Assembly (NCBI GenBank): GCA_034530875.2
Contig: JAVRCJ020000009.1
Span: forward strand, 32,001-96,000
Direction of reading: 5' to 3'
DNA: 64,000 nucleotides
Source: Nostoc sp. DedSLP01
GTDB taxonomy: Bacteria > Cyanobacteriota > Cyanobacteriia > Cyanobacteriales > Nostocaceae
The notes beneath the pieces were generated by a model. The model did no database searches and had not been told where the DNA came from. It saw only the letters and a list, made by a program, of their open reading frames with translations. Made by a program: the position numbers and the translations under genes. Of this stretch, positions 23,520 through 26,069 are shown in pieces. Each line of letters begins with the position of its first letter. The stretch's first letter is position 1.

Positions 23520-25235
23520 CTAAAACAAAAAGTACCTCTGGGTCATTGGTAAAACTGTTGCAGGTTCGCAAATCAGTAAATTACCATCTGCCCTGACTTC
23601 GTAGGTTTCCGGGTCAACTTCAATTTGGGGTAGCGCATCATTCAGCTTCATATCCTGCTTACTCAATTGGCGCGTTCTGGAAACTGCGATCGCTGTTTTT
23701 CGTAAACCTAACTGTGCAGGAATTTCCCTTTCTAAAGCTGCCTGGGAAACAAAAGTAAATGATGTGGCGTTCTTAGCACCAGCAAAACTTCCAAACATCG
23801 GCCGCGCATGTACTGGTTGGGGTGTGGGAATACTGGCGTTAGCATCGCCCATTTGCGACCATGCAATCATTCCGCCTTTTATGACTATTTCTGGCTTGAC
23901 GCCAAAAAATGCCGGACGCCACAAGCACAAATCTGCTAATTTTCCCTCTTCCACTGAACCCACATGTTCAGCAATTCCGTGAGCGATCGCTGGATTAATA
24001 GTATATTTAGCAACATATCTTTTCGCCCGAAAATTATCTGCTGCTTCTTCAGTTCCTTGTGGGTTAAGAATTCCTCGTTGCACCTTCATTTTGTGAGATG
24101 TCTGCCAGGTGCGAATTATCACTTCGCCCACCCTTCCCATTGCTTGGGAATCAGAAGAAATCATGCTAAATGCGCCCAAGTCGTGCAAAATGTCTTCAGC
24201 AGCAATGGTTTCTCGGCGGATGCGGGACTCAGCAAAAGCAACATCTTCTGCAATCGCCGGATCGAGGTGATGGCATACCATCAACATATCCAGGTGTTCG
24301 TCTAAAGTGTTGAGGGTGTAAGGACGCGTGGGGTTGGTAGAAGATGGTAAAACGTTGGCTTGACCGCAAACTTTGATGATATCTGGTGCGTGTCCGCCGC
24401 CTGCGCCTTCGGTGTGGTAAGTGTGGATGACACGATTCTTAAACGCAGCGATGGTATCTTCCACAAATCCGGCTTCGTTCAGCGTATCGGTATGAATAGC
24501 CACTTGGATATCGTATTCATCGGCAACGCTGAGGCAAGTATCGATTGCTGCGGGGGTAGTTCCCCAGTCCTCATGTAACTTTAACCCCATTGCACCGGCG
24601 GCTACTTGTTCTACAAGTCCTTGGGGTTGACTGGCGTTACCTTTACCCAAAAATCCTAAGTTGACAGGAAAAGCATCAGCAGCTTGCAACATCCGATAAA
24701 TATTCCAGGGGCCTGGGGTGCAGGTAGTGGCGTTTGTGCCGGTAGCGGGGCCAGTACCCCCGCCAATCATGGTGGTGATACCAGAAGCGATCGCCACTTC
24801 AATTTGTTGGGGACAAATAAAGTGAATATGGGCATCAATACCGCCAGCAGTGAGAATCATTCCTTCCCCTGCTAAGGCTTCAGTTCCGGGGCCAATAATA
24901 ATATCTATATTATTTTGAATATAAGGATTTCCGGCTTTACCAATTTTGAAAATCTTACCATCTTTAATGCCGATATCTGCTTTGACAATACCCCACCAAT
25001 CGAGGATTAAAGCATTAGTAATTACTAAATCTACAGCGCCATCAGCATTAGAAATGGGGGATTGTCCCATGCCATCTCTGATGACTTTACCGCCGCCGAA
25101 TTTCACTTCATCACCGTAGGTAGTTAAGTCTTGTTCGACTTCGATGAACAATTCTGTGTCTGCAAGTCGGACTTTATCTCCGATGGTGGGGCCGAAAGTT
25201 TCGGCGTAGGCGCGGCGGGACATTCTGTAAGGCAT
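23520..25235 (-). CDS. ureC: Urease subunit alpha
   Basis: [40 protein letters not shown] end. Confidence 0.98.
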
Positions 25236-25264
25236 AACTTTTGGTAATGGAGGTTAAGATTGAG

Positions 25265-25308
25265 TTTAAACGCAAAGGATCGCAAAGTCAGCGCAAAGGT
25301 TCGCAGAG
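25265..25308. repeat. Left inverted-repeat arm flanking the GxxExxY gene (4x CGCA(A/G)AG)
   Basis: TTTAAACGCAAAGGATCGCAAAGTCAGCGCAAAGGTTCGCAGAG. Confidence 0.8.
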
Positions 25309-25309
25309 G

Positions 25310-25687
25310 ATGGATGAGAATAGTTTGAGTGGGGTGATAATTGGTTGTGGGATGCGAGTGCATACAGCGTTGGGGCCGGGTTTGTTAGAGTCAGCTTATG
25401 AGGAGTGTTTGTATTATGAATTGAGGAAAAAGGGGTTAAATGTTGGTAAGCAAGTTCCATTACCGCTTATTTACGAAGAGGTGAAATTAGACTGTGTTTA
25501 TCGATTAGATTTAATAGTTGAAAATCAAGTAATTATTGAAGTCAAATCTGTAGAATCCATCAACCCAATTCACTCCGTACAACTTTTAACTTATCTCAAA
25601 CTAACTAATTGCAAACTTGGTCTTATTCTCAACTTTAACGTTCTCCACCTCAAAGAAGGCATTAAACGTGTAGCAAACAAACTCTAA
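25310..25687 (+). CDS. GxxExxY family protein (PD-(D/E)xK nuclease-like)
   Basis: VHTALGPGLLESAYEECL, YRLDLIVE, IIEVKSV, QLLTYL, GLILNF; ATG 25310 (the ORF-track extension is translated repeat). Confidence 0.9.
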   Translation: MDENSLSGVIIGCGMRVHTALGPGLLESAYEECLYYELRKKGLNVGKQVPLPLIYEEVKLDCVYRLDLIVENQVIIEVKSVESINPIHSVQLLTYLKLTNCKLGLILNFNVLHLKEGIKRVANKL

Positions 25688-25732
25688 CTCCGCGTACCTC
25701 TGCGTTTACCTTTGCGTCCCTTTGCGTTAAAA
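25688..25732. repeat. Right inverted-repeat arm flanking the GxxExxY gene
   Basis: Reverse complement TTTTAACGCAAAGGGACGCAAAGGTAAACGCAGAGGTACGCGGAG aligns with the left arm; starts at the base after the stop codon. Confidence 0.8.
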
Positions 25733-25763: not shown

Positions 25764-26069
25764 TCAGAGGTTTCCGTTAATTTTACCGTTGAAACCGTAG
25801 ACTTGGCGGCTACCAACCAAAGGCACTAATGTGACTTCTTTTTCATCACCTGGTTCAAAGCGAACTGCCGTGCCTGCGGGGATATCGAGACGCATTCCTC
25901 GTGCTTGTTCTCTGTCAAAAATTAAAGCAGCGTTAACTTCATAAAAGTGAAAATGAGAACCAACTTGTATGGGGCGATCGCCTGTATTTGACACCTGCAA
26001 TTTAAGAGTAGGACGACCAGCATTTAATTCAATTTCACCTTCTGGCGTAATAATTTCCCCAGGAATCAT
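25764..26069 (-). CDS. ureB: Urease subunit beta
   Basis: [37 protein letters not shown]. Confidence 0.97.

Follow-up and report, generated by a model that had tools for sequence, protein, structure and literature searches.

A predicted GxxExxY nuclease gene between inverted heptamer arms at the ureB-ureC junction of Nostoc, with covariation between its first helix and the arm word

Within a 64,000-nucleotide stretch of DNA from Nostoc sp. DedSLP01 (the window), a gene of the GxxExxY family is bracketed by two inverted arms of tandem heptamers. Across its homologues this arm-gene-arm layout is the rule, and residues 7 and 8 of the N-terminal helix covary with base 5 of the repeated word. The covariation makes it likely that the protein recognizes its own repeats, and likely too that it helps the unit to spread. 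Our best reading is a unit comparable to REP/RAYT or Ssn systems, in which a small nuclease is coupled to its cognate repeat, here with a predicted PD-(D/E)xK enzyme.

The features of the locus are collected in Table 1. The original prediction of a 125-aa gene lying antisense between ureB and ureC with two inward-facing four-unit arms was confirmed, and the open reading frame is intact. The left arm stops 1 bp before the ATG and the right arm begins at the base after the stop codon, and the units, expected about 10-12 bp apart, are spaced 10/11/10 on the left (starts at 25271, 25281, 25292 and 25302) and 10/12/10 on the right. The reading frame stays open through the left arm (25241-25309), which makes a start giving 146-148 aa possible; the homologues mostly begin at the ATG at 25310. 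A match to Rfam 5_ureB_sRNA above the gathering score (24900-25082, plus strand) lies antisense to the 5' coding region of ureC and is probably coding homology. A transcript of the GxxExxY gene would need to begin within or near this interval; a promoter scan gave 1 match against 2.7 expected.

Table 1. Positions in the window of the GxxExxY cassette, its parts and its host genes
Feature	Position	Strand	Remark
ureC, host gene adjoining the cassette	23520-25235	-	name from reading of the translation
Outer flank of left arm	25236-25264	+	common to ureC-site cassettes of several genera
Left (upstream) arm	25265-25308	+	TTTAAA leader, four CGCA(A/G)AG units
GxxExxY / PDDEXK_3 gene	25310-25687	+	125 aa, intact, TIGR04256 and PF13366 scores
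Ser7-Gly8 codons, N-terminal helix region	25328-25333	+	positions covarying with base 5 of the arm word
Predicted active-site residues E27, D67, E77, K79	25388-25546	+	conservation in homologues
Right (downstream) arm, inverted	25688-25732	-	four units, spacing 10/12/10
ureB, host gene across the cassette from ureC	25764-26069	-	name from reading of the translation

The protein belongs to the family with 150.5 bits against TIGR04256 (cut-off 35) and 147 bits against PF13366, PDDEXK_3 (cut-off 22), and the profile search returned no other domain apart from a sub-threshold match to Cas4. Among 93 diverse homologues E27, D67 and K79 are invariant and E77 is kept in at least 90%, with Q91 and Y95 also conserved, so that the D...E-x-K motif (D67, E77, K79) bears out the PD-(D/E)xK-like signature proposed for this protein. 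From what is known of such motifs we take E27, D67, E77 and K79 to be catalytic, and the protein is a predicted PD-(D/E)xK nuclease. A profile search of the PDB returned a single chance-level match (E 0.54) and no sequence relative, and a search of the Atlas gave no usable match. The family is large (12,017 clusters at 50% identity, E<=1e-10), and the window gene is its sole member in the genome.

The arms belong to a dispersed population of arrays. Arrays of at least three units occur 89 times in the genome and 0 times in each of 3 shuffles, and they are therefore not a product of chance. Stricter typing of the genome arrays gave 33 of type A (the design of this locus) and 73 of type B (8/8-spaced). 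Among these 33, just one inward-facing type-A pair lies within 3 kb, and it encloses the genome's sole GxxExxY gene. Most type-A arms are solo; 5 of the 33 have a two-unit inner partner, against a background of 0.16%. The arms are tandem, non-palindromic arrays, each pairing only with the opposite arm, and an Rfam search returned no match on them.

Several further observations concern the surroundings of such arrays. Seven type-A arms of the source genome, G000 (C5:34732, C5:173409, C5:327229, C14:105762, C15:181193, C45:16012 and C50:14801), have longer flanks in common that contain an inverted repeat of their own; the arm is thus also carried along as part of a larger composite repeat. Another family of composite repeats surrounds arms at C4:89309, C11:45106, C22:128225 and C51:16658, and a second small palindromic repeat is often inserted between type-A units (L074, L125, L141, L166, L170 and others). 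At C19:153244-153336 a GTAG-type palindrome stands beside an arm stub, and the type-B GxxExxY cassette of relatives occupies the same site. Several other families (L181, L247, L249, L251) have a type-A GxxExxY cassette at the junction of a flavodiiron-like gene pair, where G000 has gene-less inverted heptamer arrays (C8:229553-229659 and C4:344663-344822); as the contents of the junction differ between genomes, such sites swap between repeat systems. In G000, five of the six four-helix-bundle (TIGR02436) genes are flanked by inward heptamer arrays, with a distinct heptamer for each gene (L241, L242, L244, L245 and L246, at C1:86678, C28:63753, C16:47825, C5:193830 and C23:1106). This is the arm-gene-arm design with another protein family, and its heptamers, in our estimation, resemble STRR repeats.

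The layout is general among homologues, which were gathered as 80 named loci and supplemented from the genus, the order and the Bacteroidota. Inward arms of at least two units stand on both sides of the gene in 96 of 116 distinct loci (at >=60% identity) and on at least one side in 114, whereas outward arrays on both sides, the control, occur at 1 locus. Inverted arrays at both gene ends, which the original prediction proposed to look for, are thus the normal design of the family. The 116 loci fall into 19 flank clusters, an upper bound because singletons are included, and five clusters have several members (50, 24, 13, 12 and 3 loci) across cyanobacteria and Bacteroidota. The ureC site forms one cluster. 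Judging by the translations of neighbouring genes, we take the other sites to be a second Nostocales site, the flavodiiron gene pair, and operons of Flavobacterium and Melioribacter. Arm class is identical on both sides in 128 of 167 family loci and discordant in 4. On a 129-row tree, built by a quick method with identical proteins and the near-duplicate genus copies L002-L080 left out, arm class changes 13 times against 60.4 when shuffled, a result that reflects clustering only because kin share labels. Unit spacing is 8/8 or 8/9 in other clades, against about 10-12 in the type-A clade; the suggested helical phasing of the units therefore holds in this clade and not elsewhere.

Arm class tracks the protein tree and the arm word tracks residues of helix 1; arms and protein are thus matched, a point in favour of the earlier interpretation. 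The six units at the valS site (three per arm) all change word together, and the helix-1 codons change with them, the gene body being nearly unchanged. The hypothesis was fixed before new loci were scored, namely that Gly8 goes with ..GAG and any other residue with ..AAG, position 7 perhaps being better in one clade, and scoring used the downstream arm alone. For Gly8 alone the counts were 9/9 against 5/20 in the first new set (29 of 42 loci with a scorable arm) and 5/5 against 6/18 in the Bacteroidota (23 scorable of 69 fetched). A combined rule (Gly8 or Thr7 with ..GAG, otherwise ..AAG) held at 26/27 in the first new set, a figure that is not independent because the rule was fixed after that set had been seen, and at 22/23 in the held-out Bacteroidota loci, which are independent of the rule setting. 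Over thinned loci, 93 of 105 agree with the majority rule and 12 break it. The exceptions are mostly Nostocales type-A arms with mixed words, the window locus included, where G is found in two of the four units. Within the type-A clade the share of G climbs from about 0.4 in the outer unit to 0.85-0.94 in the gene-proximal one.

The contrasts used a tree made with helix 1 left out. With every branch counted, the residue-base rule is favoured in 17.5 of 18 independent contrasts and opposed in 0.1, and among 289 residue states the three that rank highest are all at positions 7 and 8. Strongly supported branches give 6 contrasts, 5.2 for and 0.2 against, too few for the sign test to reach significance (median p 0.0625). 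Judged from sequence comparison, helix 1 may touch base 5 of the arm word. GC bias was rejected as the source of the link (raw rho 0.23, which is weak; contrasts 3.7 against 4.0, no signal). Hitchhiking could tie helix 1 to a particular arm, but it should not produce a fixed direction across independent contrasts. A search for residues covarying with base 2 of the word (CGC versus CAC) found clade-marking columns only.

At the ureB-ureC junction, a survey of 25 genomes of the genus (G000 and 24 others) found 3 intact cassettes, 1 remnant, 10 solo arms only, 2 solo arms with other genes, and 9 cases of other genes with no arm. The assumption that ureB and ureC are normally adjacent did not survive this comparison, for just 10 of the 25 genomes have no intervening gene, and all 10 of these have a solo arm. 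This site is a hot spot of turnover. G015 and G018 have the cassette next to a solo arm that was already there. Comparison of the ure junction, four solo arms and three further cassette sites showed neither a target duplication nor a clean pre-insertion allele, and the sites look replaced rather than inserted into. The four solo arms, each compared in up to five relatives, are variable, absent, or have given way to a different heptamer array in that position.

Across the Nostocales, the synteny that would have spoken against a mobile element was found in part, in that 24 loci share the ureC junction; because the cassette recurs there, it is site-faithful and not freely jumping. Compared with four loci (three from Tolypothrichaceae, one unclassified), the window gene has a dS of 0.23-0.28 and the adjacent 5' part of ureC a dS of 0.77-1.05. 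This mismatch indicates that cassette and neighbour differ in their history although the junction has stayed the same, and we take it as a sign that the cassette has passed from genus to genus at the ureC site. In comparison with three other Nostocales loci the GxxExxY gene is more diverged than ureC. The suggested mobility of the cassette is supported in part, by patchy presence and by lateral transfer as judged from dS, but not by a clean empty site or a target duplication. Two deletion remnants, at a second site in G000 (C3) and at the ure site in G014, have lost the middle of the gene and kept both arms with the gene's first and last bases; the cassette decays through internal deletion into gene-less hairpins. 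Several genus copies of the gene contain in-frame stops.

Array abundance follows gene presence, as had been anticipated. Among 201 genomes of the order, counted by hand and including kin that are not independent, strict type-A arrays are present in 10 of the 12 carriers, defined by a full-length gene at >=64% identity, as against 14 of the 189 remaining genomes. Each of the 7 genomes with at least 20 such arrays carries this gene clade. The two carriers lacking a strict match have variant arms, and some genomes without this gene clade (G026, G145, G147) hold 8-16 arrays.

We consider the chances about even that the predicted nuclease binds the arm word through helix 1, cuts nearby, and makes it more likely that the cassette, through flanking homology, replaces junctions that bear an arm. 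The binding, cutting and self-mobility that we infer would proceed as follows. The N-terminal helix would read the 7-base word of the cassette's own two inverted arms; the protein, probably a dimer because two-domain tandem homologues exist (P0121-P0128, 270-295 aa), would then cut DNA at or near the arms. A cut at an arm-bearing junction would allow the cassette to replace that junction via flanking homology, in a homing-like manner and probably by transformation, which would account for both the site fidelity and the absence of target duplication. Solo arms and hairpins would be relics or in-trans products, the hairpins arising when the cassette is lost through internal deletion.

Long persistence at a few sites and a single copy of each clade in a genome suit a domesticated gene just as well. 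The protein would in that case still recognize its arms but serve an Ssn-like host function, cutting incoming or exposed repeat-bearing ssDNA and tuning transformation while ordinary recombination moves the cassette passively, an account that we find unlikely. Consistent with it are purifying selection (median dN/dS 0.10 over 24 pairs, each against the window gene), a chromosomal, low-copy state (the family is rare on plasmids, 8/72,556, and on viral contigs, 1), the long residence, and a layout that matches NTS-ssnA-NTS, a modulator of transformation according to PMC11893778. Frequent loss and decay, with the cassette intact in 3 of 25 genus genomes at this junction, two deletion remnants and in-frame stops, and cassette-only transfer across genera argue against it, and a selfish nuclease would also be expected under purifying selection.

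Alternatively, the element could act at the RNA level, the arms forming a stem in the host's transcript that the protein or RNase III recognizes or processes, thereby hiding or removing the insert; this appears quite improbable to us. Folding gives a long stem between the arms in the ure-sense RNA (z -2.86, 0/100 shuffles) and a less clear one in ssDNA (z -1.63, 7/100 shuffles), and own-pair complementarity of the arms exceeds that of permuted pairs at the valS site and a second site. The ureC group, however, has no arm-to-arm matching beyond clade level (p 0.43), and pairing by itself predicts no residue-base code. RNA-library contigs X5 and X7 of a cassette-bearing relative are colinear across the cassette with no skipping joint, evidence that consists of contigs in which DNA may be present and a minor spliced form would escape detection. 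The RNA runs come from other strains with small word shares, and X1 and X3 are without the cassette. Of the earlier suggestion that arm pairing loops the insert out of the ure mRNA, the computed pairing stands and the skipping finds no support in these contigs. That the gene is captured cargo between small dispersed repeats moved by another enzyme is very improbable: although arms also occur inside larger composite repeats, junctions exchange unrelated repeat types and genes, and arrays are present without the gene, no further gene of the genome lies between paired type-A arms within 3 kb of each other, four-helix-bundle genes carry different arms, and arm class and word track the GxxExxY protein, a code that cargo leaves unexplained.

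GxxExxY may, though we advance this hesitantly and as somewhat doubtful, be a very large family of sequence-specific nucleases of about 125 aa with a simple helix-1 code, driving self-spreading arm-gene-arm elements of a distinct class and producing dispersed repeats in cyanobacteria and Bacteroidota without a transposase. The cassette offers a candidate driver for dispersed cyanobacterial repeats, and, were the code true, the family would be a source of very small nucleases with differing specificity, like Ssn for GIY-YIG. PF13366, listed as of unknown function in PMC3424549, gains a named candidate substrate and a two-residue prediction.

Among known systems, free-standing homing endonuclease cassettes combine site fidelity, patchy presence, one-locus transfer between lineages and decay, and have no inverted arms. 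The GxxExxY cassette resembles them in site fidelity, patchiness, decay and lateral transfer at a fixed site, as seen in the dS values at the ureC junction; it differs in its inverted arms, in the occurrence of one clade at several unrelated sites, and in an empty allele that often bears an arm. STRR heptamers are short dispersed intergenic repeats of Nostocales, and the small dispersed repeats of cyanobacteria are reportedly, following Elhai et al. in 2008, likewise short and intergenic in this order. The arms are similarly short, dispersed and intergenic and possibly overlap with the Elhai catalogue. We know of no driver for either kind of repeat, and our literature search found no link between them and GxxExxY. 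In the literature covered on GxxExxY, PF13366/TIGR04256 and arm-gene-arm architecture (subscription papers and bioRxiv supplements being outside its scope), the unit is not described, and in one paper that names GxxExxY it is a gene annotation only. IS elements and MITEs, such as Nezha of Anabaena and Nostoc (PMC3184786), have in common with the cassette terminal inverted arms and gene-less internal-deletion derivatives, here the G000 and G014 remnants; the cassette differs in having no transposase family match, no target duplication and no multicopy recent insertions.

The closest parallels are with two systems. As originally proposed, the layout parallels REP/REPIN-RAYT units, described in PMC3116915 and PMC3337134 as a low-copy enzyme gene in inverted repeats, with gene-less doublets and singlets and clade-specific repeats, and the enzyme class differs, PF13366 standing in place of an HUH tyrosine transposase. 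The protein has no HUH (Y1) transposase match, and the arms are mostly solo and are not short palindromic doublets like REPs. Ssn proteins, as described by Chenal et al. 2025 (PMC11893778), are small nucleases whose gene is flanked on both sides by a dispersed cognate repeat, mobility not being shown there. Ssn/SRM and GxxExxY units are alike in a single-domain small nuclease gene, a cognate repeat on both sides and dispersed (both arms at 96 of 116 loci, 33 arms genome-wide), many protein-repeat pairs and a chromosomal location. In contrast, Ssn is GIY-YIG (cd10448), to which the 125-aa protein does not belong, with one short hairpin repeat, whereas GxxExxY is PF13366 with tandem-array arms. 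By analogy, the GxxExxY unit would work like Ssn/SRM and REP/RAYT, while differing from both in enzyme family and repeat form.
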